From an uncultured Acidimicrobiia bacterium (GTDB taxonomy: Bacteria; Actinomycetota; Acidimicrobiia; Spongiisociales; UBA5794): a stretch of 64,000 bases of DNA. This document shows, piece after piece, positions 8,123-22,800 of this stretch. The number at the start of each line of letters is the position of its first letter. Position 1 is the stretch's first letter. Where the stretch lies: NCBI GenBank assembly GCA_963704825.1, contig CAVPHV010000017.1:359325-423324 (forward strand), read 5' to 3'. The notes under the pieces were generated by a model. It had not been told where the DNA came from and did no database searches. It worked only from the letters and a program-made list of their open reading frames with translations. Position numbers and translations under genes: made by a program.

Positions 8123-8395
8123 GTGGACGATAGCGGCGCCGGCTCCCCAGCCGGTGGCCACGACTTCACCTTCCTCACCAGGCAAGGGTGCCCGATGTGC
8201 GACGAGGCCCTGGAACTCGTCCGGCGTCATGCCCGCGGCTCGGTCGAGGTGGTTGACGTCGACCTCGACCTCGACTTGCTCGAGCGCTACAACGAACTTG
8301 TTCCGGTCGTGCTCGACGCAACGGGGCGGGTGCTGGCGACCGGGCCGCTCAGCTCTGGACAGGCAAAGCGTCTGGTGCGCCGGTTCAACCGCTGA
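8123..8395 (+). CDS. Glutaredoxin-like / thioredoxin-fold protein (DUF836-like), GTG start.
   Basis: F.F.TRQGCPMCDEALELV...VEVVDVD...ERYNELVPVV has a CPxC active site and a glutaredoxin-family pattern. The last about 19 codons lie inside copy 1 of the 56-bp tandem repeat. Confidence 0.65.
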   Translation: MDDSGAGSPAGGHDFTFLTRQGCPMCDEALELVRRHARGSVEVVDVDLDLDLLERYNELVPVVLDATGRVLATGPLSSGQAKRLVRRFNR

Positions 8396-8569
8396 CCGGG
8401 CCGTTCAGCTCCGGGCAGGCAAAGCGTCTGGTACGCAGGTTCAACCGCTGACCGGGCCGCTCAGCTCCGGGCAGGCAAAGCGTCTGGTACGCAGGTTCAA
8501 CCGCTGACCGGGCCGCTCAGCTCCGGGCAGGCAAAGCGTCTGGTACGCAGGTTCAACCGCTGACCGGGT
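8338..8569. repeat. MIRU-like VNTR: about 4.1 tandem direct copies of a 56-bp unit (consensus ~GACCGGGCCGCTCAGCTCCGGGCAGGCAAAGCGTCTGGTACGCAGGTTCAACCGCT), each carrying an in-frame TGA.
   Basis: Copy starts at about 8338, 8394, 8450, 8506 and 8562 (period 56). Copy 1 is slightly diverged and forms the 3' end plus stop of the Grx-like CDS. Every further copy re-encodes LTGPLSSGQAKRLVRRFNR* in a shifted frame (56 = 2 mod 3). No spacers, so not CRISPR. Confidence 0.85.
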
Positions 8570-8610
8570 GCTGATTCTGGCGCCGCGACCCCCCACTATC
8601 CTCCAAAAAC

Positions 8611-9237
8611 GTGAAGACGAGCATCCCGAAAGCCACCATTGCCAGGCTGCCGCTCTACCTGCGGTGCCTCAGCGACCTCGCTGCGGCACAGACGACCTGC
8701 TCGTCCGATCAGTTGGCGACCAATGCCGGAGTCAACTCCGCCCAGGTGCGCAAAGACCTGTCCTATTTGGACGTCAGCGGGGTGCGCGGGGTGGGCTACT
8801 CCGTGGTCGAACTGCGCCACCAGTTGTCTACCGCCCTTGGCTTGAACCAGGGGTATGCGGTGGCGATCGTCGGCGCCGGCAATCTGGGGACGGCGTTGAG
8901 CAATTACGGTGGGTTCGCCGCGTGGGGCTTCACTGTGGCAGGGGTGTTCGACATCGATGCGGCAAAGGTCGGCACCGAGGTTGGCGGCCACCTGGTGCGT
9001 CCGCTGGTCGACTTGGAGGAGATCGTGCAGCAGCGCGACATCGCCATCGGCATCGTCGCCACGCCGGCAAATGCCGCTCAGCAGGTCGCCGACAGGTTCA
9101 TCGCCTCCGGGCTGCGGTCAATCCTCAACTTTGCGCCGACGGTGCTCCAGGTGCCCGACAACGTGTCGGTACGACGAGTGGATCTCTCCACCGAATTGCA
9201 GATTCTCACGTTCCATCTTCAGCAGGACGCCGGCTGA
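8611..9237 (+). CDS. rex: Redox-sensing transcriptional repressor Rex.
   Basis: N-terminus IPKATIARLPLYLRCL (winged HTH); Rossmann GAGNLGTAL. Typical 208-aa size. Confidence 0.9.
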   Translation: MKTSIPKATIARLPLYLRCLSDLAAAQTTCSSDQLATNAGVNSAQVRKDLSYLDVSGVRGVGYSVVELRHQLSTALGLNQGYAVAIVGAGNLGTALSNYGGFAAWGFTVAGVFDIDAAKVGTEVGGHLVRPLVDLEEIVQQRDIAIGIVATPANAAQQVADRFIASGLRSILNFAPTVLQVPDNVSVRRVDLSTELQILTFHLQQDAG

Positions 9238-9284
9238 CCGTCGGCTTTGGAGGCGGTGCCGCGTTGATCAGATGGGGCGCCCGT

Positions 9285-9794
9285 TCAGGCGGACTCTTCC
9301 GCCGCGTTCTCATAGCGGTCGAGTGCCGCGACGAACATCAGGAACAGGATCAGTGAGCCGAGGGTGAGCGCAATCGCAGGCACCCGAACCTGGAAGGCGT
9401 TCAGCCCTTCAACATCGGAGGGCCGCAGCCCGCGCGGGGCGTAGACCACGAACAGGGCGCTGCCGATGACCAGCCAACCAAACGTGGCGGCGCCGGTGAC
9501 GAGGAAGGCGAGGCGGGCGCCCAGGTTGGTGTAGAGCAGTAGGTAGCCGCTGCCGATGAACGCGATGATCGAGGTCACGGTGATGAGTACCCCTCGGGTC
9601 GCAACCGAGAAGGCCGTTACCCGGCCGGTGTCGGGATCGACCTGCTTGAAGATGGCGTCGTAGATGTCCCCGAACAGGCCCCGCACCGGCGGAATGAACG
9701 AAAGGATGGCGACGATGATGGCAAAGACGCCAAGCCACTCGAGGGCAGTCAGCCCTGCTTCATCACTATGGAATCGCCGGCGCAGGTTGCTCAC
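9285..9794 (-). CDS. Small integral membrane protein (169 aa, about 4 TM), last gene of the bc-complex operon.
   Basis: Its ATG overlaps the stop of the upstream cytochrome c gene (ATGA). The N-terminal GLTALEWLG is superficially Flp/TadE-prepilin-like (G-x-T-A-x-E-[YF]), probably coincidental. Four hydrophobic helices. Confidence 0.5.
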   Translation of the reverse strand: MSNLRRRFHSDEAGLTALEWLGVFAIIVAILSFIPPVRGLFGDIYDAIFKQVDPDTGRVTAFSVATRGVLITVTSIIAFIGSGYLLLYTNLGARLAFLVTGAATFGWLVIGSALFVVYAPRGLRPSDVEGLNAFQVRVPAIALTLGSLILFLMFVAALDRYENAAEESA

Positions 9795-11464
9795 ATCGAC
9801 CTTTCATACTGGACGATGAGTCGGATGTCTTCCTCAGACAGGATCTGCCCAAATGCGGGCATCCAGCCATTGCCGATCCCGTTGACGCCGTAGTTCCTGG
9901 CCAGCTCGGAACCCTCGATGATGAACTTGACCTGGTCGTCCGCATTCGGGAACTGGCTGACGGAGGCACCACCGACAAGCGATGGCCCCCAGGCCCCGCT
10001 GCCGGCTTCCTGCTCGAAGGCAACCCCGGCGCTGTAGCCGGCGGTGTGACAGCGGGCGCAGTAGCCGTTGAACAGACCGACGGCCCGCTCGCTGTCGGCC
10101 ACGCTGAGCCCGGTGTTGGCAGCCACCTCGTCGAAGTCGACCGCCCACAGTTGCTCTGCCTCGGCGTCACGTAGGAAGTTGAGGCCCTCGACTGCAGTGT
10201 TCAGGAAGACCTCTTGGCGCTCGGTCACCACGCCAAGGGTGAGATGTGCGGTGCTGAGGTCATTCATCCAAGCGTCGAGCGAGTCGATGTCGGCAATGGC
10301 CACTCCCGCAGCGTCGGTCATCGTGAAAGCCTTGCTCGGGTCGAGCATGAGGTCGTACAGGTGTGGATACAAGCCGACGTTGGGCACGATCGTCACCTCA
10401 TACGTGATGTTCCCGTCGTCGTCCTCGACCGGGGACACCACCCGCACCACCACGGTGTCCGCGGTGATGGCGGCCAGCGAGTTCGGATCCCGCTCACCGT
10501 CCACGGACCCGGCGATGAGGCGTTCGGCTTCGTCGCTGATTCCGTCGCGGTCGGTGTCGAGCCCGGCCTGGTTGCAGGATGACCCGACCATGGCGGCGGA
10601 CTCATCGGTGCAGGTCCCGTCGCCGGCCAGGATGAAAGCGATGTTGGTCGGTGTGGCGCCTGCCTGCTCCAGTGTCTCGAACTTTGCCGGGGCGTCATTC
10701 AAGTCGGCGATGACTGCTTGTTCGGCGGCAATACGGGCGGCGACTGCCTCGGCGCCGCCGGCGATGCGGGCCAGGGCGGCGTCCACCGTCGGTTGGATCT
10801 TGGCGAGGGCATCGCCCTGGGAGATTTGGAACGACTCGATGAAGGCCATGACCTGGTCGACTTCCTGGGTGCTCATGGCGCCGCCGCCTTCGAGACCGTT
10901 GGCCGGCATCGGGGTGCCGGCGCGCCCGTAGACGACCCAGAACTCGACCTCTTCTTCGCTATAGCGGTAGAAGACATCGTTGAGCGAGGGAACGGCCCAC
11001 GAGGTCTCCAACCCGCTGCGTTCCTCCGTGTAGGCCGCGCCGCCACCGCCCCCGTCGGCGCCGTGGCAGTTGGTGCACACGAAGTTGGTGTACCACCTGT
11101 GGCCCTCTTCGATGTAGAGCTCGCTTTGGGCCTCCGCCGCCTCAGCCTGGCGGTCTGACTCGATGATGTAGTAGACCGGGATGAGGAGAGCAAGAACGCC
11201 GGCTGCAACTACGGCCGACGTCAGGATCTTGGTTAGCCGTCTGTTCTCCAGCTCATCGTCGGAGAGGTACGGCTGAAGGTTGGGCGGGGTTTCGTCGGCC
11301 TTCTTCTTGCCGACCCGCCTGCTGTTGATGATGAGGTAGCCCACCCAGATCAGGAAGGCGCCGATGACCACGATGAGCACAAACGCGCCGAGCCCGACGT
11401 TGGCAGGACCGGCCGGTGTGCTGTCGGTCTCCGCCGTCGCGAGGATGATCGATGCCGCCGTCAC
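9791..11464 (-). CDS. Membrane-anchored dihaem cytochrome c (about 557 aa) with a roughly 300-aa insert between the two haem domains.
   Basis: Two CxxCH motifs (CTNCHGADG and CARCHTAGYS). N-terminal TM VGLGAFVLIVVIGAFLIWVGYLII. The insert contains DTDRDGISDEAE (DxDxDG Ca-binding-like). Start assigned to GTG 11464, overlapping the Rieske stop (GTGA); the 620-aa ORF start at 11653 lies deep inside the Rieske gene. Confidence 0.75.
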   Translation of the reverse strand: MTAASIILATAETDSTPAGPANVGLGAFVLIVVIGAFLIWVGYLIINSRRVGKKKADETPPNLQPYLSDDELENRRLTKILTSAVVAAGVLALLIPVYYIIESDRQAEAAEAQSELYIEEGHRWYTNFVCTNCHGADGGGGGAAYTEERSGLETSWAVPSLNDVFYRYSEEEVEFWVVYGRAGTPMPANGLEGGGAMSTQEVDQVMAFIESFQISQGDALAKIQPTVDAALARIAGGAEAVAARIAAEQAVIADLNDAPAKFETLEQAGATPTNIAFILAGDGTCTDESAAMVGSSCNQAGLDTDRDGISDEAERLIAGSVDGERDPNSLAAITADTVVVRVVSPVEDDDGNITYEVTIVPNVGLYPHLYDLMLDPSKAFTMTDAAGVAIADIDSLDAWMNDLSTAHLTLGVVTERQEVFLNTAVEGLNFLRDAEAEQLWAVDFDEVAANTGLSVADSERAVGLFNGYCARCHTAGYSAGVAFEQEAGSGAWGPSLVGGASVSQFPNADDQVKFIIEGSELARNYGVNGIGNGWMPAFGQILSEEDIRLIVQYERSM

Positions 11465-12360
11465 ACGCACGATGGTCCCTGCGGATAGGCAATGGTCTTG
11501 ATGGTGGCCCGGGAGGTCTCGAGGACCTGGCCCGTCTGAACGACGAGGTCGCCGTTGTCGTTGATCTCGACGGCGAAGCGGTCCATGTTGCGCGGCGCCG
11601 GTCCATCCACGTACTCGCCGTGGAAGTTGTACTTGGAGCCGTGACAGGGGCATTCAAAACCCTGCGACGACAGACACTCGGGGACCCGGCAGCCGAGGTG
11701 GACACAGCGCTGCCAGAGTGCCATCAGGCCCGGCTCGCTGCCGTCGGTGGCGACCACGGGAAGACCAGCGAATGAGCTGGCATCCTGGACATTGGAGTCG
11801 AACGGAACGATCCACGATTGGGCCGCGGCCACGAAGACCGGCTGGACGGAGCCGTCGGCTTGGATCATCTGGAGCTGCAGCTCGGTGAAGTTGCCTGCGT
11901 TGATTGGTGAGCCAAAGCCACCCTTCAGCTTCGGCCACAGGAAGGCCAGGAAGCTCAGCGATAGTCCTCCGAGGAAGGCACCGACGAACAGACCGAACAA
12001 TGCTCGGTTCAGGAACTTGCGGCGGGTGACGCCGTACTCGGCGGACGTGATCGGGATCCTCTCCAGTGCCGGATCTGGCGGCGGGGCCGCCGGCCCAGTA
12101 GCCGTCTCAGACTCGGCCGTTGTGGCGGTGTCGTCTTCAGCGGTTGCCGTCAACGTGGCAACCGCGGTTCCGCCTCCGTCGGCAGCAGACGCCTGTCGTC
12201 GGCGGTCGGAGCGAACCGCACGCTTGTCGAGCTTGCCGGTTGCGGCCGAGGTGATGGGTTCGGCGGACGGGCCGCGGCGCCATGCCACAGTGAACACCGC
12301 GAGGGCCGCCAGCCCTGCGGCGGCGACAATGCCAATGACGAAGATGGTGGTTGCGCTCAT
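11461..12360 (-). CDS. Rieske [2Fe-2S] iron-sulfur subunit of a cytochrome bc-type complex (Tat signal).
   Basis: CVHLGCRV...CPCHGSKY Rieske boxes. Twin-arginine RRKFLNRALFGLFVG. Start taken at the internal ATG 12360 (MSATTIFVIG...), which overlaps the upstream stop (ATGA). Confidence 0.85.
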   Translation of the reverse strand: MSATTIFVIGIVAAAGLAALAVFTVAWRRGPSAEPITSAATGKLDKRAVRSDRRRQASAADGGGTAVATLTATAEDDTATTAESETATGPAAPPPDPALERIPITSAEYGVTRRKFLNRALFGLFVGAFLGGLSLSFLAFLWPKLKGGFGSPINAGNFTELQLQMIQADGSVQPVFVAAAQSWIVPFDSNVQDASSFAGLPVVATDGSEPGLMALWQRCVHLGCRVPECLSSQGFECPCHGSKYNFHGEYVDGPAPRNMDRFAVEINDNGDLVVQTGQVLETSRATIKTIAYPQGPSCV

Positions 12361-13577
12361 CAGAAATCGAAGAAGACGCCGTCGACCCAGGGGAACGTGA
12401 AGTTGAATCCCGGTCCTCGGAAGAACGACCCGTAGATGGTCAGCACTGCGGCTGCGAACAGGAAGAAGCTGAAGATCATGATGGCCAGCTTTCGGTCGGA
12501 CGGCCGCACCGATGGGTTGCGGTCGACGTAGGGAATCATGGCGAGCCCAATGGCACCGAAGGTCGGGACGATGATCCCGGCGACCTGAGGGTCGAAGTAA
12601 GAGAGCAGTTCTTGGAGTCCGAGGAAGTACCACGGCGCCTTGGATGGGTTGGGCTGTTCGTTGAAGTTGGCGAACTCGAGTAACGGGGCGTCAACAAACA
12701 CCGAGAAGACGAACAATGCCGCCAGCACCACCATGAGAGCGACAAACTCGATGGCGAGCAGATGCGGCCAGACGCTCACCTTGTCATGCGGTTCGGACTT
12801 GACCTGTTGGATCGCCCCGGCTTTGACGACGGTCAGCAAACGTTGGGTGCGGACGCCCTCTGGAATCGCCTGTGCGGCGGCAGGTGCGGCGGCAGCCGCC
12901 GCACCACCGGCGGCGGGGACGGCCGCGGGTGGCGGGGCAGGTGCGCCGCCTGCCATCGTGGGAACGGCGGTGCCGTCCTTCCTCGCTCTGGCCACCATCG
13001 CCCGTTGCAGGAGAGGTACCGGTACTCCGTAGGTTGCGGACTCGGCATCGAGGTCGCGCACCGGCCCGGTGGGTGCTGCCAATGGAGCGGGGGCGGCTGC
13101 GGCGGGTTGAGCAGCGGGCGGCGCTTCGGCCACGGCCGCCTCTCCTGCGGGCGTTGCACCCATGAGTTCAGCCATGACCTCATCGACCGAGCGACCTTCC
13201 CTCTTGGCCCGCGCCTCGGCGGATCGTCGGACGAGGTGTTCGGGGAGACCCGGCCCGCCGCCGGTCGGTGCCGCGGCGGCAGGTGCAGCCGGTTCGGGGG
13301 CGGCGGCCGGTGGAGCAGCCCCGGTCAGCTCGGCCATCACTTCCTCAACGGAGCGGCCCTCCTTCTTGGCGCGAGCCTCGGCGGTCCGGCGGAGGAGGGC
13401 TTCGGGGATCTGTGCGGCCTCGCCACTTGCGGCGGCAGGTGCAGCAGGTTCGGGTGCGGCGGGCGGTGGAGCGGCTTCACCCTTCATCTCTGCCAGCACT
13501 TCGTCGACGCTCCGCCCCTCGGCCTTGGCACGGGCCTCGGCGGATCGCCTCAGAATGCTTTCGGGTATCTCTGCCAC
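12360..13577 (-). CDS. Cytochrome b6f subunit-IV-like / cytochrome b C-terminal-domain protein with a long N-terminal Ala/Pro-rich extension carrying 3.5 copies of a roughly 25-aa motif.
   Basis: C-terminal about 140 aa have 3 TM helices and the P(E)WY motif (APWYFLGLQELL). N-terminal repeats IPESILRRSAEARAKAEGRSVDEVLAEMKG / IPEALLRRTAEARAKKEGRSVEEVMAELTG / LPEHLVRRSAEARAKREGRSVDEVMAELMG are separated by AP-rich linkers. Confidence 0.75.
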   Translation of the reverse strand: MAEIPESILRRSAEARAKAEGRSVDEVLAEMKGEAAPPPAAPEPAAPAAASGEAAQIPEALLRRTAEARAKKEGRSVEEVMAELTGAAPPAAAPEPAAPAAAAPTGGGPGLPEHLVRRSAEARAKREGRSVDEVMAELMGATPAGEAAVAEAPPAAQPAAAAPAPLAAPTGPVRDLDAESATYGVPVPLLQRAMVARARKDGTAVPTMAGGAPAPPPAAVPAAGGAAAAAAPAAAQAIPEGVRTQRLLTVVKAGAIQQVKSEPHDKVSVWPHLLAIEFVALMVVLAALFVFSVFVDAPLLEFANFNEQPNPSKAPWYFLGLQELLSYFDPQVAGIIVPTFGAIGLAMIPYVDRNPSVRPSDRKLAIMIFSFFLFAAAVLTIYGSFFRGPGFNFTFPWVDGVFFDF

Positions 13578-13586
13578 GCGGTCTCC

Positions 13587-14369
13587 TTAGAGCGGACCCG
13601 AGATGCCGCCGTCTTTGCGCACTCGCCAGAAGTGCACGGCCATGAACACCACGATCACGAACGGGAAGAACAAGACGTGGAGGACGTACCACCGCAGCAG
13701 CGTGTCCGGCGTGATCTGGACGCCGCCGATCAACGCAAAGGACACTTGATCTCCCAACACCGGCGCATAGGCCCCCATGTTGGTGCCGACGGTCACCGCC
13801 CATACAGCCAATTGGTCCCACGGCAGCAGGTAGCCGGTGAACGAGAGGAGCAGGGTGAGGAGAAGGAGGATGATGCCGACCACCCAGTTGAATTCGCGGG
13901 GCGGCTTGTAGGCGCCGTGGTAGAAGACCCGAGCCATGTGGAGGAACACGGTCAGCACCATCAGGTGGGCACCCCATCGGTGCATGTTGCGTACCAACTG
14001 ACCAAAGGCCACGTCGGTCGAAAGCGCCTGGATGTCCTGGAAGGCGGCCGGTGACGTCGGCCGGTAGTAGAACATCAGGAAGATGCCGGTGATCGTGAGC
14101 AGGATGAACAGGAAGAACGAGAGTCCGCCGAGACAGAGGGTGTAGGAGAGCCGGACGCCGTGGCGCTTCACCTTCACCGGGTGGAGGTGGTAGAGCACGT
14201 TGTTCATGATCACATAGGAGCGGTTGCGGGGGCTGTCCGAGTAGCCAGCGCGCAGCGGTGAGCCGGGGCGGAAGATGCTCGACCACACCTGGCTGGATTG
14301 GATGCTCTCACCGACTTGGACCAGGCGCTCTTTCAGCCCGACCTTGCCGTCTCCGTTCCCGTTCGCCAC
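13587..14369 (-). CDS. Cytochrome b6-type (short, 260 aa) cytochrome b N-terminal domain protein.
   Basis: Four TM helices with bis-haem His pairs (MHRWGAHLMVLTVFLHM and RWYVLHVLFFPFVIVVFMAVHFWRVRKDGGISGP), typical of PetB/QcrB (Bacillus-type). Confidence 0.85.
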   Translation of the reverse strand: MANGNGDGKVGLKERLVQVGESIQSSQVWSSIFRPGSPLRAGYSDSPRNRSYVIMNNVLYHLHPVKVKRHGVRLSYTLCLGGLSFFLFILLTITGIFLMFYYRPTSPAAFQDIQALSTDVAFGQLVRNMHRWGAHLMVLTVFLHMARVFYHGAYKPPREFNWVVGIILLLLTLLLSFTGYLLPWDQLAVWAVTVGTNMGAYAPVLGDQVSFALIGGVQITPDTLLRWYVLHVLFFPFVIVVFMAVHFWRVRKDGGISGPL

Positions 14370-14433
14370 CCGACCTCCTCAAAGGCGTCGATAGTCTCAC
14401 CCACGGCAAGCGCCGGTCAAAATCGACCGTCGC

Positions 14434-14880
14434 TCACCAACGTACTCCGTATGCATACCCGTTCTTGAAGTCGCGAGCTCCTGTGTCGTACTCCCACGGC
14501 GCCAGACCGTGCTCATCTGCTTCCGCCGACAGCGAGCCGGCGAATTTGCCGAGCGAGATCACGCCGGTGGGGCAGCGGTCGATGCAGAGTGCACATCTGG
14601 TGCACTCATCCTCGTCGACCACGAAAAACCCCTTGTTCTCGGCATTTGACCCGGGGTCATCAACGTTGACCCCCTCGGCGATGGCGTCAACCGACAAGTA
14701 GTGGATGCACTTCCAGGGACAGATGTCGACACATCCCTCACACAGAATGCACTCGGCCTGGTTGATGTGAAGGAACTGCTTCGGCTTGACTGCTGCGATC
14801 AGGTACGCCCCGTCGACGGCGGCGAGTTGATAGTCGTCGCGCATCGGCGGGGTTTCGAACCAGACGTCGCTCTTGGCCAT
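14434..14880 (-). CDS. 2x[4Fe-4S] ferredoxin-like protein encoded inside the bc-complex operon.
   Basis: Two CxxCxxCxxxCP motifs (CILCEGCVDICP and CTRCALCIDRCP). Start at internal ATG 14880 (MAKSDVWF...). There is a 5-nt gap to the upstream gene. Confidence 0.75.
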   Translation of the reverse strand: MAKSDVWFETPPMRDDYQLAAVDGAYLIAAVKPKQFLHINQAECILCEGCVDICPWKCIHYLSVDAIAEGVNVDDPGSNAENKGFFVVDEDECTRCALCIDRCPTGVISLGKFAGSLSAEADEHGLAPWEYDTGARDFKNGYAYGVRW

Positions 14881-14885
14881 CTTCG

Positions 14886-15404
14886 CTACCTCTCGACCTT
14901 GGTCATGGGCCGACCATACGTCGAGACCGGTTGCGGCGGCGGACCGGATGCGATCTTCTTCTGCTGGTCCTGCCACTTGATCATCACGAAGGCGATGGCG
15001 CCGGTGATGGCGACGGAGTAGCCGGCCACGATCATGTCCTTGATGACTGCGTAGCTGATGGAAACGTCGTTGTTGAGCACAAGCACAGGGGGAATCGTGA
15101 GGAAGTTCTTCTGGGGCGTCCACTCCCATACCGCCTGAGTGAGCGTGAGCCATTGGTTGGGGATGACGCCGTAGAGGATGACCATCAGGCCGGTGAAGAG
15201 TGCGGCACCGAGCGAGGCGCGGGCCCAGGTCATCTTCCGCTTGTAGAGGAAGGCGAGTGTGGCGCTCGCCATGGCGAGGAGCACGCCGCCCAGGGCGACG
15301 AGTTGACCGAACAGTACGAAGCCCCACCCACGGGGGATTGCGGGGTAGATCTCCCGGCCGAGGTCGTCGAACTCGTTGAGACCGGTGAAGTGCGCAATGA
15401 GCAC
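14886..15404 (-). CDS. Integral membrane protein (172 aa, about 4 TM), first gene of the bc-complex operon; GTG start.
   Basis: Hydrophobic helices (WGFVLFGQLVALGGVLLAMASATLAF..., LGAALFTGLMVILYGVI...). No recognisable family. Confidence 0.5.
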   Translation of the reverse strand: MLIAHFTGLNEFDDLGREIYPAIPRGWGFVLFGQLVALGGVLLAMASATLAFLYKRKMTWARASLGAALFTGLMVILYGVIPNQWLTLTQAVWEWTPQKNFLTIPPVLVLNNDVSISYAVIKDMIVAGYSVAITGAIAFVMIKWQDQQKKIASGPPPQPVSTYGRPMTKVER

Positions 15405-15630
15405 TCCGATGACCAGCGTGACCAGGCCAACGAAGATGCCGGCGATGCCTGCCCTGAAGTAGTTTCGATGCTCCAGTTCGCCCTCCTGGTCCGTGCGGTG
15501 CGCACCTTACCGCGCCGAGATCGCCCCGGCCGCCGTCATTCTATGCAGACCGATGCCACTCTCGAAGCTCGACAGAGTTTTTCCCTTCCTGTCTGATAGC
15601 TAGGCTGCGCCCCGCCCGACGGGACGACCA

Positions 15631-17607
15631 ATGGAGGACGCGCGAGCGGTGGCCGCAGAGACGAAGACCGACGCTTCCGAGCCCGTACAGTCTGTGGCGG
15701 TATCTGGGTACTCCGGAGCAGCCCGCGCCCACATCTTTGTAGCGCTCGGCTCGCTCTTTGCCGGCGTCATGCTTGCCCTGGTTGCCGTGACGCAACTGGT
15801 CCTTCCCGATGTGTTCTCCGGCGTCGGCATGCTGAGCTACGGCAGGGTGCTTCCCGCTGCGACCAACGTTCTCGTCTACGGCTGGCTGACGGTTGGATTG
15901 ATCGGCGCCGCCTACTACATCGTTTCCGAGGTCGCCGGAGTCAAACTCCAGTTCGAGCCGCTCGCCCGAGTGGGCGCTCTGTTGCTCGCCATCGGTGTCA
16001 TCGCCGGCGCCGGCGGGATCGCACTCGGTTGGAGTGAGGGACGCACCTACGTCGAGATGCCGCTGTGGGCGGACTTCTTCGTTCTCCTCGGCTTGCTGAT
16101 CGCGGTGCGGGTCATCACCGCAACCATCTCCGATCGCACCAACCGCGAGATGGGTCCGGCCCTGTGGTTCCTCGGCGCCGCACCACTGTGGCTGTTGTTT
16201 GCCTTCGTGGTCGGCAACATCCCCGGCCTGGTCGGGATGAACAGCGTCATCCAGACCGCCTTCTACCGCGGCGCCCTTGCCGGGCTCTGGTTGTCGGTAG
16301 CCGGCTTCGGGATCGTGTACTACCTCATACCGAAGGTGACCGGCCGCGGACCGGCCAAGCCGACCAAGCTCGCGGTCATGGGTTTCTGGTCGCTCGGGTT
16401 CGTCTGGGCGTTTGCCGGAGCCGCCAACCTCACGTACACCCCGGCCCCCGGCTGGCTGCAGACCATCGGTGTCGTGTTCTCGATCGCGCTCTTCCTTCCG
16501 CTCGCCATGCTGTTCACAGATCTGGTTGGTCTGATGCGTGGCCGCTGGGGTCGGGCACGCGACCGGATGACGATGCGCTTCATCGGGGCGGGAGCAATCC
16601 TGTTGCTGGTGACGGCGGTCATCAACCTGCTCCAGGCGCTGCGGGCATCGAACGCCGTTGTCGGCTACACCATCTGGGGTGCCGCCTTCGAGTACGCCAC
16701 GTTCTACGGGGCATTCACGCTGTGGCTGGCCGCCTTCATCTACGCCGCGGCCGGTGATCTGCTCGGAGGTGTCTTCAAGCCTTCGGTGGCGAGAGGGCAC
16801 TACCGCCTCACGACGTTCTCGATCACCGTCATCCTGGCGACGACGCTGATCGGAGGCCTGCAAACCGGGTTCTTGTGGATCGCCGACGCCAACAGTCCCG
16901 AAAGTACCGTGGCTTACGGGCCAGGGTGGAAGGCCGTCGTTGAATCGCTTCAGCCGCACTACTGGATCTTGTTCCTGGCGATGGTTCTGTTTGTCTTCGC
17001 TCAGGTCCGCTTTGTCGCCGGCGGGGTCGCCGCGGCCATCAACGCGAGACCGGCGGAGCCGGAGACGGCCGACCACGACGACCTCGAAGGACCCGACCTC
17101 GCGGATGCCGGCTGGATGGCGACCAACGGAGTGTCCGCCCGCCACCTGTGGCTCGGGTCGACTGGTCTCCTTGTGCTGGCGGCCCTGCTGGTGGTGCTGC
17201 TGCCCTCGCTCGAGGCTTCTCACGTGGACGGGACCATCCTCTCGGACCGCTCCCGCAACTACCGCTCCGATGACTTCTTGGAGCGCGGCCGCGGGTTGTA
17301 CCTGGCCGAGGGGTGCTGGTACTGCCACACCCAGGACGTCCGGCCCATCGTCACGGACGTGGAATTGGGTGCGGTCAGCCAGCCCGGCGATTACGCAAAT
17401 GAGGTTCCGGCCTTGCTCGGCACGGCTCGGGTGGGACCCGACCTGATGCACGCCGCGACCCGGGAGGAAGCCGGTTCGAGCGCGTTCCTTTTTGATCACT
17501 TGACCGACCCGCGGGTCGACCGCCCCTGGTCGATCATGCCGAGTTATGACTACCTGTCGGAGAACGACCGGTTGGCCCTCGCCGCCTACATCACGAGTCT
17601 GGACTGA
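15631..17607 (+). CDS. cbb3-type oxidase subunit I (CcoN)-like 12-TM domain lacking all canonical haem/CuB histidine ligands, fused to a CcoO/FixO-like monohaem cytochrome c domain.
   Basis: Block-wise similarity to CcoN as I remember it: [34 protein letters not shown] vs [53 protein letters not shown] vs [33 protein letters not shown] vs GPHHLHYT. The C-terminus [22 protein letters not shown]...VGPDL...IMPSYDYL matches the CcoO haem-c site. Confidence 0.75.
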   Translation: [658 protein letters not shown]

Positions 17608-17610
17608 GCG

Positions 17611-18483
17611 ATGGAAGATCAGATCCAAAGAGTTGCCGAACAAACCGGGGTCCCTAGTGGCCTGTTACAACGCGCCGCCGCCGCCCGCGCCACCGCGGCA
17701 GGCACCTCGACCGAGGTCATCGTGGCGAAGTGGGCCGGCGAGGACGCGGCAGCTCCGGCAGCAGCCACGGCCGCTCCCGCTCCGGCCGCGCCGCCGGTCG
17801 CTCCGGCCCCGGCGCAGCCGCCGGCAGACAGTTCGACGCCGGCAGTTGAGGTGCTTGAACCGGTCGCCGCGGCTCCCAGCACGGTCGGAGCGGATGCGTC
17901 GGAACCTGAACCGGAGCCCGAGCCTGCAGCCGCAGGCGGGTTCCCCAAGTGGCTGGCCGCCGCCTTCATTGTGATCCCTGCCATTGCGCTGTTCTATGCC
18001 CTGCTCTTCCCGAATGGTCCTGACTGCGGTTCGGCCGGTCAGTTGGCCGTCGATCCCGGCACCGGTGTCGCCGTGAACTGTGACGGCAGCGCGTTCGGGT
18101 CCGAGGAGTTCAGCTACTTCGGCACCGGCGAGGTCATCTACGCCGAACGGTGTGCCGCGTGCCATGGTGCCAACGGCGCCGGTGGCGCCAACTTTCCCGC
18201 TCTGGCCGGTGGGGCCGTGGTTGCGACCTTTGGCTCCTGCACCGATCACGTTGCGTGGGTTGGGTTGGGAACGGCCGGATTCCAGGAAGCCGGCATCGCC
18301 ACCTACGGCGACAGTGAGAAACCCGTGGGCGGCGCCGGGGTTCCCATGCCGGGCTTTGAGGGTGTCATCTCCGAGCAAGATCTGATTGCGGTCGCCCTCT
18401 ACGAGCGAGTCGCCTTCGGCGGCGAGGATCTTGCGGTTGCTGAGGAACTCTGCGTCGGCCAAGAGGCCGTGGCTTCTCCGTAG
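17611..18483 (+). CDS. Membrane-anchored monohaem cytochrome c (CcoP-like) with an N-terminal motif related to the subunit-IV repeats.
   Basis: CAACHGANGAGG (CxxCH) with flanking FPALAGG as in CcoP. Central TM FPKWLAAAFIVIPAIALFYALLF. The N-terminal LLQRAAAARATAAGTSTEVIVAKWAGE resembles LLRRSAEARAKAEGRSVDEVLAEMKGE. ATG is 4 nt after the upstream stop. Confidence 0.7.
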   Translation: MEDQIQRVAEQTGVPSGLLQRAAAARATAAGTSTEVIVAKWAGEDAAAPAAATAAPAPAAPPVAPAPAQPPADSSTPAVEVLEPVAAAPSTVGADASEPEPEPEPAAAGGFPKWLAAAFIVIPAIALFYALLFPNGPDCGSAGQLAVDPGTGVAVNCDGSAFGSEEFSYFGTGEVIYAERCAACHGANGAGGANFPALAGGAVVATFGSCTDHVAWVGLGTAGFQEAGIATYGDSEKPVGGAGVPMPGFEGVISEQDLIAVALYERVAFGGEDLAVAEELCVGQEAVASP

Positions 18484-18511
18484 TCTCGGCGCGCTCGGTA
18501 CGCTCCCTGCC

Positions 18512-19774
18512 ATGACTTCACCGGATGTACTGGTTGTCGGCGGCGGCCCCGCCGGGGCCTCTGCCGCCTATTGGATGGCGCAGCGTGGGGTGTCCGTCCT
18601 GGTCGTCGAGAAGAAGACCTACCCGCGTGAGAAGACCTGCGGTGACGGGCTGACCCCGCGGGCGGTCAAGCAACTGATCGACATGGGGTTCGATTTCGAC
18701 ATTCCCGAACTCCATCGGATCGACGGGCTGCGCGCCTACGCCGGTGACCTGATGCTGGAGCTGCCCTGGCCGGAGCGCACCACCTATCCATCGTGGGGCG
18801 CCGTCATCCGCCGTGCCGACCTCGATGGGCGGGTCGCCATGCTCGCCGAAAAGCAGGGGGCGGTGATTCAGCAGGGGACCGAGGCCACGGCCATTGTCGA
18901 CGACGGCAGACTGGTCGCGGTCGACCTGAAGGTCGGCAACGGCTCGGGAGAGTCAGAGATCACCCGGGTCACGCCCCGGCTGGTTGTCATCGCCGATGGG
19001 TCGCTGTCGCGTTTCGGGCGAAAGCTCGGCACGGCGCGACGTCGCGACTACCCATACGGTCTTGCCGTGCGCGCCTACTACTCGAGCCCCAACTCGGGCG
19101 ATCGATTCCTCGAGAGCCAGCTCAACATCACCGACCGCAACGGCCGTCACATGCCGGGGTACGGCTGGATCTTCCCGCTCGGCGACGGCACCATCAACAT
19201 CGGCGCCGGAGCCCTTTCCACCTTCAAGGGGTGGAAAGACCTCAATACGACCGAACTCCTCGAGGCTTATGTATCCGGCCTGCCATCGCGTTGGGAGGTC
19301 ACGGCGGCGTCGCTGCTCACCGAGCCGACCGGGGGCAAGCTGCCGATGGCCTTCTCGATCGGACCCAAGGTCGGTCCGAATTGGGTTGTGGTCGGAGACG
19401 CGTCAGGGGCGGTCAATCCCTTCAACGGCGAAGGAATCGACTACGCCTACGAGACGGGACGCCTGGCCGCCGGCTATGTCGCCGACGCTCTGGCGACGGG
19501 CGACAGTGGACCCCTCTACGGCTACGCCCAAGCGATCGAGCAGGAATACGGCGATTACCACAAGGTCGCCAGGATCTTTGCGCTGGCGATCGGGAACCCG
19601 GCCGTGATCAAGACCCTCACCCAGGTGGGAATGCGTTCCCGTCCACTGATGGAGTGGGTACTGAAGGTCATGGCCAACCTGCTCGAACCGGAGGAGCGCG
19701 GGATGACCGAGCGGGTCTACGGAGCCATTGAACGGGTCGTCAAGATCGCCCCCGAGCCCAACCGATCTCGGTAA
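18512..19774 (+). CDS. FAD-dependent geranylgeranyl reductase-family oxidoreductase (candidate menaquinone/isoprenoid side-chain reductase, MenJ-like).
   Basis: Start at internal ATG 18512 (MTSPDVLVVGGGPAGASAAYWMAQRGVSVLVVEKK: GxGxxG FAD fold). ...TCGDGL... and GDASGAVNPFNGEGI are typical of the GGR family. Confidence 0.8.
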   Translation: MTSPDVLVVGGGPAGASAAYWMAQRGVSVLVVEKKTYPREKTCGDGLTPRAVKQLIDMGFDFDIPELHRIDGLRAYAGDLMLELPWPERTTYPSWGAVIRRADLDGRVAMLAEKQGAVIQQGTEATAIVDDGRLVAVDLKVGNGSGESEITRVTPRLVVIADGSLSRFGRKLGTARRRDYPYGLAVRAYYSSPNSGDRFLESQLNITDRNGRHMPGYGWIFPLGDGTINIGAGALSTFKGWKDLNTTELLEAYVSGLPSRWEVTAASLLTEPTGGKLPMAFSIGPKVGPNWVVVGDASGAVNPFNGEGIDYAYETGRLAAGYVADALATGDSGPLYGYAQAIEQEYGDYHKVARIFALAIGNPAVIKTLTQVGMRSRPLMEWVLKVMANLLEPEERGMTERVYGAIERVVKIAPEPNRSR

Positions 19775-19803: not shown

Positions 19804-22800
19804 GTGACGACGTCGGGGGATTTCAGCGAAGTCGATCTTGACCAGTTGGTCGAGCAGATCGTCGCTGCCGATGAGGTGGCGAGTGATGTGCTGGCGGCGT
19901 TCGCCCGGGCCTATCTGAGCCGAGTCCCGCAGGAGCGTCTCGCCGCCTGGCCGCCGGACGAGCTTGGGGCTCACGTTCGCCACCTCTTTGAATTCGCCGC
20001 CGACCGCCGCGGCGACGACGTCGAGGTTCGTGTCTTCAACCCAACCGTCGAGACCGCCGGCTATGCGCTGAGCGGAGCCGTCGTCGAGGTGGCGGCGCCG
20101 GACATGGCGTTCCTGGTGGACTCGATCACCAACGAGATCCAGTCGCACGGTTTCAACGTCGAACGTGTCGTCCATCCCGTGGTCGGCACCGGACGCGACG
20201 CCACCGGGCGCTTGGTCGAGATCAGGCCGGCCCGCACCTCGATGTTGCGCGAGTCGATCCAGCACTACGAGCTGAGCCGGCCGATCGGGGAGCACGACGC
20301 TGCGGAATTGGAGACAGGCGTGCGGCGGGTGTTGCTCGACGTCGCTCGCGCCGTTGACGACTTCGAGCCGATGCAGGGCGCCATCTACCGCATGATCAAG
20401 GTGACTCGGGACGGTGCGGCCCGCTATTCGAAAGAGGAGATCGATGAGGATGTTGCCTTTCTCGAATGGCTGCTCGACCTCAACTTCGTGTTCCTGGGCT
20501 ACCGCGAGTATCGGATCGCACCGGGGGTGACCGAACCCGAGTTGTCGGTGGTTCCGGGTTCCGGTCTCGGCATCCTGCGCGACGACACCGAGTCGGGTTT
20601 TGCATCGCCGGTTCCGATGTCTGAGGTACGGCCCTCGCTGCGGGCCCGGTACGAGAGCGGCGATCTGCTGGTGATCAGCAAGACGAACTCGCCATCCCGG
20701 GTCCACCGCAATGCGAAGATGGACTACGTCGGCGTCCGGCACGTTGGACCCGACGGGACCGTGATCGGCGAAGCGCGGATGGTCGGCCTGTTCACCTCGA
20801 AGGCGTATATGGCGGCGGCCGATTCGATCCCGCTGCTGCACCGCAAGCTCACCCAGATCATCGAGGCGGAGGACTTGATCGAGGGCTCGCACTCCTACAA
20901 GGAGGTCGTCGGGCTCTTCAACAGCTTCCCCAAGGACGAATTGTTCACCACACCGACGCCCGACATTCGGCGCAGCATTGTCGGTCTGCTCCAACTTCAA
21001 GAGCAGCGCCACGTCCGGCTCTTTGTACGGCGCGATCTGCTGCGGCGCAGCGCGTCGGTGCTGGTGGTGATGCCACGAGACAGGTTCAACGCCGCCCTGC
21101 GTCACCGGCTCCAGGCCCTGTTGCTTGAGCGGTTCGGCGGGACCTCCATCGACTACCGATTGTCGCTCGGCGACGCCGATACGGCCCGGCTGCACTTCAC
21201 GGTATGGGTTGCCGGAGGAGAGGTTCCCGACGTGTCAATCGAGGTTCTCGAGGCAGAGGTCGTTGCCGAGGCACAGACCTGGGAGGAGCGCCTCGCCGGA
21301 GAGGTCGATGCCCGCTACGGCTCCGAACGCGGTCGGGCGTTGCTCGACGAGTGGGCCGGCAAGTTTCCCGATCACTACCGGGCATCCATCCCGTTGTCGA
21401 TTGCAGCCGGTGACCTCGGCAAACTCGACGAACTGGTAGCCGGCTCAGGGAGGGCGGTTGTCGGACTTCAGAACGAACCTGGGCCGGGCGAGCAGCTCAC
21501 CCGGCTCGCCGTGTATCGCTCAGACGGCAAGTTGGAACTCTCTGCCATCATGCCGACCCTCGAGGCGCTCGGGCTTCGGGTGGTCGAAGAAGTGCCCACG
21601 CGGCTCCGCGGCGGGGACGGCGGGCTCTTCATCCACGACTTCGGGGTGCTCGACCTCGATGGAGCCATGCTCGACCTCGACGATGTCGCCGACCGGGTGG
21701 CCGACACTGTGGTTGCGGTTCTCGCGGGTCAAGCCGAATCCGATTCTCTCAACCGGTTGATCATCAGCGCCGGACTCGACCATCGCCAAGTGACGATCCT
21801 GCGGGCCTATCGCACCTACTGGCGGCGGGTCAGTCCAGGATTCACGGTTGAGTACATCAACGACGCCTTTGCCGCCCATCCCGAGATCGCCGCGGATCTG
21901 GTCGAGTTGTTCGCCACTCGCTTCGACCCCGGGCTCGGCGAGGCAGAAGAGGCTCCTACCCTGGCTCGGATCCTTTTCGAGTTGGACCAGGTCTCCAGCC
22001 TCGACGAGGACCGCATTCTGCGCGGCTTTCTGGGACTCGTGCTCGCCACCAAGCGGACCAATGTGTACCTGCCCGGCGCCGACAGCCTCAGCTTCAAGTT
22101 CCGTTCGAGCGAGGTGCCGGCCATGCCGGAGCCGGCTCCGCTGTTCGAGATCTTCGTTTACGCCGGCGAGGTCGAAGGCATCCACCTGCGGGGCGGACGG
22201 GTGGCTCGTGGTGGTATCCGCTGGTCGACCCGCAAAGAGGACTACCGCACAGAGGTGCTCGGGCTGATGAAGGCGCAGATGACCAAGAACGCCGTCATCG
22301 TTCCCACCGGATCAAAGGGCGGCTTTGTGCTGCGTCGGCCGCCGGCGGATCCGGCCGAACTGCGCGACGCGGTGCTCGCCGGCTACATGATTTTCATCCG
22401 CGGGTTGCTGGACGTCACCGACAACCTGGTGGAAGGGACGGCGGTGCATCCCGCCGGAGTTCGAATCCATGATGACGGCGATCCTTACTTGGTGGTTGCG
22501 GCCGACAAGGGCACCGCCACGTTCTCCGACACCGCTAACGAGATCGCCGCGGCCTACGACTTCTGGCTGGGCGATGCGTTCGCGTCCGGCGGTTCGGCCG
22601 GATACGACCACAAGGCCCTCGGCATCACGGCTCGGGGCGCATGGGAGTCGGTCAAGTGGCACTTCCGCGAACTGGGTATCGACATCATGCACGAGCCCTT
22701 CACCGTGGTCGGCATCGGCGACATGTCGGGTGATGTCTTTGGAAACGGGATGCTGTTGTCACCACACATCCGGCTCGTCGCCGCCTTCGATCACCGCCAC

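Follow-up and report, generated by a model that had tools for sequence, protein, structure and literature searches.

A ferredoxin gene conserved in the probable b6c-type complex III operon of Acidimicrobiia encodes a candidate subunit of the complex

We analysed a stretch of 64,000 nucleotides from an uncultured Acidimicrobiia bacterium (GCA_963704825.1, contig CAVPHV010000017.1, positions 359,325 to 423,324; the whole stretch is called the window) and studied an operon on its minus strand, in which the gene for a ferredoxin with two [4Fe-4S] clusters lies directly upstream of a cytochrome b6 gene. Judged by the domains and motifs of its products, the locus probably encodes complex III of the Acidimicrobiia, a menaquinol:cytochrome c reductase of the b6c type that belongs to the APWY clade. 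The ferredoxin-bearing operon is the lineage norm of the Acidimicrobiia and no oddity of one genome, because the arrangement was kept in essentially all of the 80 species-level Acidimicrobiia loci that were fetched. On balance, we favour the reading that the ferredoxin is a bound subunit of the complex, where it would serve as an iron-sulphur (FeS) port on the cytoplasmic (n) side of the low-potential chain.

Seven co-directional open reading frames (ORFs) were found on the minus strand between positions 9285 and 15404. The ORF list together with Pfam and NCBIfam gave the gene order membrane protein g1, 2x[4Fe-4S] ferredoxin, cytochrome b6, subunit IV, Rieske protein, dihaem cytochrome c and membrane protein g7. 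The features of the operon are given here with their coordinates in the window.

14886..15476, minus strand: g1, polytopic membrane protein of 196 amino acids with about four transmembrane helices, probable CTG start at 15476
14886-15404, minus strand: g1 by the mechanical ORF call, 172 amino acids, GTG start at 15404
14434..14880, minus strand: ferredoxin-like protein, 2x[4Fe-4S], 148 amino acids, two complete CxxCxxCxxxCP motifs (Fer4 families, E about 1e-11 to 3e-11)
14405..14439, minus strand: RNA hairpin (~14 bp) covering the stop codon of the ferredoxin gene, within the ferredoxin-b6 spacer (z = -1.5)
13587..14369, minus strand: cytochrome b6, 260 amino acids (PF00033, E 3.6e-48)
12360..13577, minus strand: subunit IV, 405 amino acids, with the subunit IV domain in the C-terminal third (PF00032, E 7.5e-7; PDB b6f subunit IV, E 0.008)
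12825-13577, minus strand: 30-amino-acid motif in subunit IV, first position [ILV] (also at 17611-17760, plus strand, in the neighbouring CcoP-like cytochrome, and in loci L001-L072)
11461..12360, minus strand: Rieske [2Fe-2S] protein, 299 amino acids (PF00355, E 9e-9)
9791..11464, minus strand: membrane-anchored dihaem cytochrome c, 557 amino acids, haem motifs CTNCH and CARCH
9285..9794, minus strand: g7, polytopic membrane protein of 169 amino acids, translationally coupled to the cytochrome c gene
15538..15565, minus strand: promoter-like site TCGAGA-16 nt-TAGAAT, 5' of g1 in the divergent intergenic region common to ccoNO (position only)

The subunit IV and Rieske genes meet in an ATGA overlap, and GTGA overlaps were read from the sequence at both the Rieske/cytochrome c and the cytochrome c/g7 junctions. 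The gaps are 5 nucleotides (nt) between g1 and the ferredoxin gene, 9 nt between b6 and subunit IV, and 64 nt between the ferredoxin gene and b6. The GC content at third codon positions (GC3) was 0.80-0.88 for b6, g1, g7 and the ORF holding the cytochrome c gene, and all four pass the GC3 filter; this evidence bears on these four only, the ferredoxin, subunit IV and Rieske ORFs being outside the filter's list. An earlier, sequence-only reading of this DNA had proposed the seven-gene operon with its order and domain types as well as its translational coupling, and both proposals were borne out.

The distribution of the operon was examined in a genome scan with one genome per species. At least 442 loci were found and the best 80 of these were fetched; all genome-locus counts out of 80 rest on this set. 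The loci were mostly labelled Acidimicrobiia, Acidimicrobiaceae or Actinomycetota, with few other bin labels, and one of them, the isolate MFD03804.bin.2.108, was 99% identical. When all window proteins were compared with the 80 loci by tblastn, g1 to g7 were found to be kept together with a divergent CcoN-CcoO fusion, the CcoP-like cytochrome and a convergent Rex gene wherever the contig was long enough. Both g1 and the ferredoxin were present in 80/80 loci, and among the informative loci the next gene 3' of the ferredoxin gene was b6 in 71/71 from genomes and 52/53 from metagenomes (123/124 together). In 80 more distant metagenome loci, which were fetched by ferredoxin relatives of 30-60% identity, the order ferredoxin-b6-subunit IV-Rieske-cytochrome c was kept as well. 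Where members of these distant ferredoxin clusters carried a name, which was seldom, they were Actinomycetota metagenome-assembled genomes. The operon had at first been regarded as unusual for its lineage, which these counts do not bear out. An arrangement already described as the norm had been named as the observation that would speak against novelty; the arrangement is indeed the norm, and what has been described of it is the split cytochrome b.

The ferredoxin was placed in the cytoplasm because it has neither a signal peptide nor a transmembrane segment. It carries a conserved, family-specific N-terminal extension of ~40 amino acids and an aromatic C-terminal tail, GYAYGVRW. By median identity it ranks second in the operon with 77% (78 Acidimicrobiia loci), after b6 with 83% and before the Rieske protein with 51% and cytochrome c with 44%. 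Such conservation is what one would expect if the protein were packed tightly into a complex as a subunit. About 2,000 close homologues were found, the best 120 of which were all at least 74% identical, and the named ones were mostly labelled Acidimicrobiia. The family is narrow, since a search of 1.84 billion proteins gave only 20 cluster representatives with an E value below 1e-30, and ferredoxins of solved structure reached at most 29 bits per domain against the window ferredoxin. In the literature we found no account of a b6-type operon in which a ferredoxin of this family is encoded as a separate protein; on complex III of Acidimicrobiia, only a remark from 2014 on the split cytochrome b was found. 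The statement that a ferredoxin gene is unusual for any bc complex was too strong, since FeS-bearing cytoplasmic subunits are known in the Rieske/cytochrome b complexes of anammox bacteria (PMC12954380).

Outside its own family, the best single-domain relatives of the ferredoxin were the C-terminal Fer4 domains of GltD-like flavoproteins of 550-650 amino acids, which combine Fer4_20 and Pyr_redox_2. These domains matched the window ferredoxin with 70-75 bits and 38-40% identity. In 5/6 loci retrieved, the flavoprotein gene was found directly upstream of Rieske/cytochrome b genes. Three flavoproteins had been picked by ferredoxin similarity alone, and two of them adjoin Rieske and cytochrome b genes. 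Three more homologues, picked by phylum label (Planctomycetes, Nitrospinota, Chloroflexi), were all located upstream of Rieske/cytochrome b genes, with the order flavoprotein-b6-subunit IV in the Chloroflexi locus. A cytochrome b gene is included in four of the flavoprotein loci; 4/4 carry APWY, and 4/4 of these cytochromes b have the N-terminal extension of the window b6, VWxSIFRxG...LH(L/I)HPV. A homology between the N-terminal ~40 residues of the ferredoxin and the linker of the flavoproteins had been suggested by a MAFFT alignment and was dropped after a test with hidden Markov models (HMMs). As a separate observation, locus L161 (2-2444), a metagenome contig, contains two tandem GltD-like flavoprotein-ferredoxin genes upstream of a Rieske gene, an unsplit APWY cytochrome b and a 760-amino-acid multihaem cytochrome c.

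Complexes with such a flavoprotein arrangement have been described in anammox bacteria. Two complexes of Kuenenia have a cytoplasmic NAD(P) oxidoreductase, whose FeS clusters mark out a route to the cytochrome b dimer; for these complexes, NAD(P)H formation through quinol-based bifurcation has been proposed (PMC12954380). In their AlphaFold3 models, the b6-like subunit provides an N-terminal His as ligand of an additional haem b at the dimer interface (PMC12954380). The extension of the window b6 upstream of residue 54 lies outside the NCBIfam ExtP model and may therefore be the part that accompanies an FeS partner. The likeness to the anammox-type complexes (Kuenenia Kuste4569-4574 and Kustd1480-1485) was drawn by description, and sequences were compared only with the Planctomycetes, Nitrospinota and Chloroflexi clusters. 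These fetched clusters and the window have in common a b6f-like cytochrome b, the APWY motif, the N-terminal extension and an FeS module gene directly upstream of the cytochrome b or Rieske genes. The Rieske proteins of Kuenenia were measured above +300 mV (PMC12954380), and the window Rieske protein has a high-potential signature. The anammox-type oxidoreductase has FAD/NAD(P) and Fer4_20 domains, whereas the window ferredoxin has Fer4 only and stands alone; no GltD-like gene was found in the operon or among the neighbours examined. Further differences are the cytochrome c, which is dihaem in the window and hexa- or octahaem in the anammox-type complexes, the subunit IV with three transmembrane helices instead of five, and the aerobic genomic context of the window.

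The cytochrome b6 of the window was matched best by b6 of cyanobacteria and chloroplasts (164 bits, vs 83 bits for actinobacterial QcrB), and the best match of solved structure was the cytochrome b6 of the b6f complex (E 3e-47). The haem-ligand histidines H130/H144 and H231/H246, with spacings of 14 and 15, align on His86/100/187/202 of b6, and the C-terminus is GISGPL, as in cytochrome b6. The sequence LCLGG (Cys79) aligns on the haem-ci motif YCLGG. This CxGG cysteine was kept in 140/141 orthologues, and a covalent haem ci is predicted from it. The N-terminal extension of ~53 amino acids contains the motifs VWSSIFRPG and HLHPV, and H61 and H63 of the latter were invariant in 141/141 sequences. 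The cytochrome b is split like b6/subunit IV, with three hydrophobic helices in the C-terminal part of subunit IV and the Qo motif APWY (SKAPWYFLG). The NCBIfam model QcrB_actin gave 111 bits on b6 against a cutoff of 500, QcrA_actin 26 against 275 and QcrC_actin 27 against 200. The bit scores of b6, the GISGPL end, the haem-ci motif and the QcrB_actin score below cutoff confirmed the b6f-like split cytochrome b that the sequence-only reading had recognised.

That an actinobacterium has separate b6 and subunit IV genes was correct, and it was already known from Kao & Hunte (2014), who reported a split cytochrome b in Rubrobacter, Patulibacter, Conexibacter and the Acidimicrobidae member Ilumatobacter coccineum (PMC4122944). 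Their APWY clade includes Actinobacteria, and they note that no APWY enzyme had been characterised; I. coccineum was placed in either the APWY or the PEWY-cyt c clade (PMC4122944). By its APWY Qo motif and its CxGG cysteine, the b6/subunit IV pair of the window would be a member of the APWY clade, and b6 is 52% identical to the APWY-type cytochrome b of locus L161. The published description of the clade makes no mention of the ferredoxin, g1, g7 or the subunit IV repeats (PMC4122944).

These repeats lie in the N-terminal ~250 amino acids of subunit IV, an Ala/Pro-rich cytoplasmic region with 3-4 copies of the 30-amino-acid motif IPExLLRRSAEARAKxEGRSVDEVxAEM. An HMM for which only the subunit IV copies were used detected the motif in the subunit IV orthologues of 78 loci (1-5 copies) and in many of the divergent cytochrome c genes. 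In the window, the CcoP-like cytochrome has one weaker copy at its N-terminus (E 0.011). No Pfam or NCBIfam family matched the repeats, except for a sub-threshold match to VAPB_antitox (E 0.008). The motif may be a common tag for a shared cytoplasmic partner or for supercomplex assembly.

The Rieske protein has the cluster boxes CVHLGC and CPCHGSKY, and box II was CPCHGS(K/R/Q)Y in 99/100 Actinomycetota-type loci in which box II was found, the exception being CGCHGSMY. According to Baymann et al., the Rieske signature of Ser and Tyr stands for a potential of at least +300 mV (PMC3509893). The protein starts with a transmembrane helix and a cytoplasmic linker of ~100 amino acids, followed by the twin-arginine (Tat) motif TRRKFL, a second transmembrane helix and the cluster domain. 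The Tat assignment made from the sequence alone was right, and the first helix and the linker have to be added to it. The quinone of Acidimicrobiia is presumably menaquinone, from what is known of the class, and a high-potential Rieske protein combined with menaquinone would therefore leave a very low-potential b chain. Hauser et al. argue likewise for the anammox enzymes.

The cytochrome c has two N-terminal transmembrane helices, a first haem domain with C130xxCH and M186, and a second with C469xxCH and M535. Between the haem domains, an insert of ~240 amino acids was found (residues ~216-455; window 10100-10820, minus strand), and not of ~300 as had been estimated. The calcium-binding-like DxDxDG motif that had been noticed in it, DTDRDGISDEAE, is real as a conserved feature: D303, D305, R306, D307, G308 and E314 were invariant in 40 homologues and D311 was present in at least 90%. 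Two further cysteines, C285 and C297, were invariant in the same 40 homologues and precede the DxDRDGxxDxxE loop. The insert was predicted with a predicted local distance difference test (pLDDT) score of 90-98 as long helical hairpins with a beta-rich head. A Foldseek search of the insert against PDB gave no significant match, the best being flagellin-like helices with E 0.18 and a TM score below 0.25.

The membrane proteins g1 and g7 had no sequence match in Pfam, NCBIfam or PDB. Among the genome loci, g1 was present in 80/80 with a median identity of 51% and g7 in 60/80 with 58%, the absences being mostly contigs that end early; in the 80 distant metagenome loci, g1 was detected in 25 and g7 in 17. 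The homologues of g1 start ~25-30 codons upstream of 15404 and have an additional conserved transmembrane helix. In the window, the stretch encoding this conserved first transmembrane peptide contains no ATG, GTG or TTG; upstream of the listed start, AGGAGG is followed after 5 nt by a CTG at 15476. In the near-identical loci L001 and L002, canonical start codons occur only inside or after the first transmembrane helix. By this comparison, g1 very probably starts upstream of 15404. Because the homologues begin upstream and a CTG with AGGAGG sits at 15476, g1 probably uses this CTG as its start and the operon probably reaches at least to 15476.

The b6f complex of cyanobacteria and chloroplasts resembles the window complex in the b6/subunit IV split point, the 4+3 layout of transmembrane helices, the GISGPL end and the haem-ci cysteine. 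For b6f, an electron supply from ferredoxin to haem ci is a long-standing proposal (PMC5600118). The window lacks cytochrome f and the PetG/L/M/N genes, has APWY in place of PEWY and has the ferredoxin gene in the operon; its complex presumably works with menaquinone, whereas b6f uses plastoquinone. Like QcrABC of Bacillus and Geobacillus, it would be a respiratory split-b complex with menaquinol and haem ci (PMC4122944 and general background). Bacillus QcrABC differs in having subunit IV fused to cytochrome c, the Qo motif PDWY and another gene order, and in lacking the ferredoxin, g1 and g7. QcrCAB of the Actinomycetes comes from the same phylum and likewise has a dihaem cytochrome c and a multi-transmembrane Rieske protein with an internal Tat motif, and both complexes are probably wired straight to an oxidase without a soluble cytochrome c. 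In the Actinomycetes, QcrB is a long cytochrome b in one piece and lacks haem ci, whereas the b of the window is split.

The genes around the operon were assigned as follows.

15631..17607, plus strand: cbb3-type oxidase, CcoN-CcoO fusion of 658 amino acids (PF00115 and FixO; NCBIfam 'bifunctional subunit I/II')
17611..18483, plus strand: CcoP-like c-type cytochrome, 290 amino acids (Pfam/NCBIfam)
8611..9237, plus strand: Rex redox-sensing repressor, convergent with g7 (Pfam)
8123-8395: glutaredoxin-like gene
18386-19774: FAD-dependent oxidoreductase
19804-24588: NAD-glutamate dehydrogenase, 1594 amino acids
from 24660: nuo operon (nuoA-N)

The divergent CcoN-CcoO unit was found beside the operon in 73/80 loci and Rex adjoined it in 58/80. 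The region 8123-39653 of the window can be described as a respiratory and redox island, and no other complex III genes were found within the 64-kb window.

A sigma-70-like scan of 8500-15700 gave a single match, the site 5' of g1, where 0.9 are expected by chance. In the ferredoxin-b6 spacer, no promoter or terminator was found beyond a weak hairpin call at chance level. The stronger hairpin over the ferredoxin stop codon has a UUUU loop and no trailing U-tract, its z of -1.5 vs shuffles is not significant, and it is not a canonical terminator; it might tune the ratio of ferredoxin to b6 expression. The Rex operator TTGTGAA-N4-TTCACAA was searched with up to 3 mismatches, and none was found in the promoter region of the operon; one chance-level match occurred elsewhere. 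By these signals, a separate transcription of the ferredoxin gene is not indicated, nor is its co-transcription with the other genes proven.

That the ferredoxin, g1 and g7 are physically attached to the complex is inferred from the sequence data, as are all of the following electron-transfer steps. Quinol would be oxidised at a Qo site made by b6 and subunit IV. One electron would pass through the cluster of the Tat-inserted Rieske protein to the membrane-anchored dihaem cytochrome c and from there to the neighbouring cbb3-type oxidase as the likely acceptor or to another oxidase, possibly within a supercomplex. The other electron would cross the membrane via the two b haems to a Qi site with the covalent haem ci. 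The ferredoxin would be a stoichiometric peripheral subunit at the cytoplasmic (n) face, docked probably at the conserved N-terminal extension of b6, and its two [4Fe-4S] clusters would form the connection between a cytoplasmic partner and the low-potential chain at its haem bN/ci end. In that case it would correspond, in a minimal form without flavin, to the FeS module that joins the anammox-type complexes to their NAD(P) oxidoreductase subunit. The proteins g1 and g7 would be additional membrane subunits or assembly factors of the complex.

For the direction of electron flow through the ferredoxin, both possibilities were considered. An output, in which quinol-driven bifurcation delivers low-potential electrons to a ferredoxin-level acceptor, is suggested tentatively because of the high-potential Rieske signature together with the assumed menaquinone, and because of the anammox analogy. 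An input, in which the Qi site or haem ci receives electrons from reduced donors in the cytoplasm, is somewhat more doubtful; it is favoured by the retained haem ci and by the analogy with b6f, for which such a role of ferredoxin in cyclic flow has been proposed. It is also rather speculative that a permanently bound 2x[4Fe-4S] ferredoxin wired to haem ci/bN makes the complex, widespread in aerobic Actinomycetota, a quinol-driven bifurcating machine that yields reductant at the ferredoxin level and at the same time feeds the oxidase or, reversed, a true ferredoxin:quinone reductase. In both directions it would be a natural form, hard-wired in the genes, of the ferredoxin-b6f link that has been under debate for cyclic electron flow.

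Several observations weigh against the assignment of the ferredoxin as a subunit or against the comparison with the flavoproteins. The similarity of 2x[4Fe-4S] domains is promiscuous, and polyferredoxins matched the window ferredoxin equally well via multiple repeats. Of the flavoproteins picked by ferredoxin similarity, P0218 (locus L163) was not beside Rieske/cytochrome b genes. The HMM of the ferredoxin N-terminal region found nothing above a shuffled control in 123 flavoproteins, so that the similarity is limited to the 2x[4Fe-4S] domain. The haem-ci cysteine is missing in the four flavoprotein-linked cytochromes b and kept in the Actinomycetota forms; the two kinds of complex may therefore differ mechanistically, for example at the Qi site. 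The HLHPV motif of b6 lies inside the region of the NCBIfam ExtP model and is not specific to ferredoxin-bearing forms. An AlphaFold2 model of the ferredoxin from an alignment of 13 sequences reached a mean pLDDT of 48 and was not used. The ferredoxin-b6 spacer of 64 nt is the longest in the operon and holds the hairpin, which makes a differential expression of the two genes possible.

This spacer, set against the overlaps of the downstream genes, and the missing transmembrane segment would also fit a ferredoxin that is not a subunit. It could be a soluble carrier or a maturation or assembly factor, for attachment of haem ci or for FeS insertion, beside an ordinary b6c complex with g1 and g7 as assembly factors. 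Haem-ci maturation in b6f requires dedicated membrane proteins, the CCB system, and g1 and g7 have no recognisable family and were found in a minority of the distant loci, which counts for assembly factors; no CCB-like Pfam family, however, matches either of them. The strict adjacency of the ferredoxin gene to b6 in all but one of the informative loci and its slower evolution than that of the Rieske protein and cytochrome c argue against a non-subunit role. The same applies to the similar domains that are fused to flavoproteins at the same position upstream of cytochrome b, and to the corresponding complex member of the anammox bacteria (PMC12954380). We regard a non-subunit ferredoxin as unlikely, while giving it some weight. 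A different question is whether the complex runs mainly in reverse or in a non-respiratory role, spending proton-motive force to drive electrons from a high-potential donor via cytochrome c into the quinone pool or onto the ferredoxin, and is thus not the main aerobic complex III. Kao & Hunte take APWY as characteristic of reverse-running complexes (PMC4122944), and relatives occur in nitrite oxidisers (PMC3578206) and anammox bacteria (PMC12954380), in which reverse flow is needed. Against this, the operon is part of a conserved island for aerobic respiration that also holds cbb3 oxidase, Rex and nuo genes, it was found in essentially every Acidimicrobiia genome fetched, and the window holds no second set of complex III genes. 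Acidimicrobiia are also largely aerobic heterotrophs, and a mainly reverse role is judged improbable.

The most remote alternative is a module of the ExtOPQ (Cbc6) type for the reduction of selenite/tellurite or extracellular metals. ExtP belongs to the split-b Rieske complex of the ext/Cbc6 cluster (PMC5877670, PMC2825233), and the ExtP equivalog NF040969 gave 304 bits on the window b6, above its cutoff of 290. The ExtQ model reached 55 bits on subunit IV, a partial agreement that is far under its cutoff of 150. Geobacter ExtO/P/Q (Cbc6) is included in the APWY clade and is like the window in its split b6-like cytochrome b and subunit IV-like protein, APWY and CxGG; the ExtP match would reflect this common ancestry. 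The typical motif of the clade is WCMGG, whereas the window b6 has LCLGG, and the ExtP model covers 205 positions and leaves the b6 extension upstream of residue 54 outside. In Geobacter, the hallmarks of the ext cluster are a rhodanese, a porin and cytochromes with 4 to 12 haems, and a ferredoxin is lacking (PMC5877670). The operon of the window has the ferredoxin, and no ext-type rhodanese, porin or multihaem gene was found among the genes examined around it. The naming as ExtOPQ was rejected on this genomic context, the neighbours being cbb3 oxidase, Rex and nuo, and such a function is very improbable. Automated annotation could nevertheless misname the Acidimicrobiia b6 as a 'selenite/tellurite reduction' ExtP cytochrome.

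Acidimicrobiia are abundant in oceans, soils and wastewater, and their complex III is usually annotated piecemeal. The split cytochrome b of deep Actinobacteria was already known; the ferredoxin of the operon is the part for which we found no description. If it is only a co-expressed carrier, what remains of the finding is that an operon typical of the lineage has been annotated correctly. If the ferredoxin is a true n-side subunit, these bacteria would be aerobes with a b6-type complex that has an FeS exit or entrance on its low-potential chain. This would join the proposed NAD(P)H-generating complexes of anammox bacteria with the question of a direct ferredoxin-to-haem-ci transfer in b6f. 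Of the versions compared, that of the Actinomycetota is the simplest, with the haem-ci cysteine retained, two clusters and no flavoprotein. With relatives in cultured organisms, it would offer a simple and widespread system for testing electron transfer from FeS clusters to haem ci.

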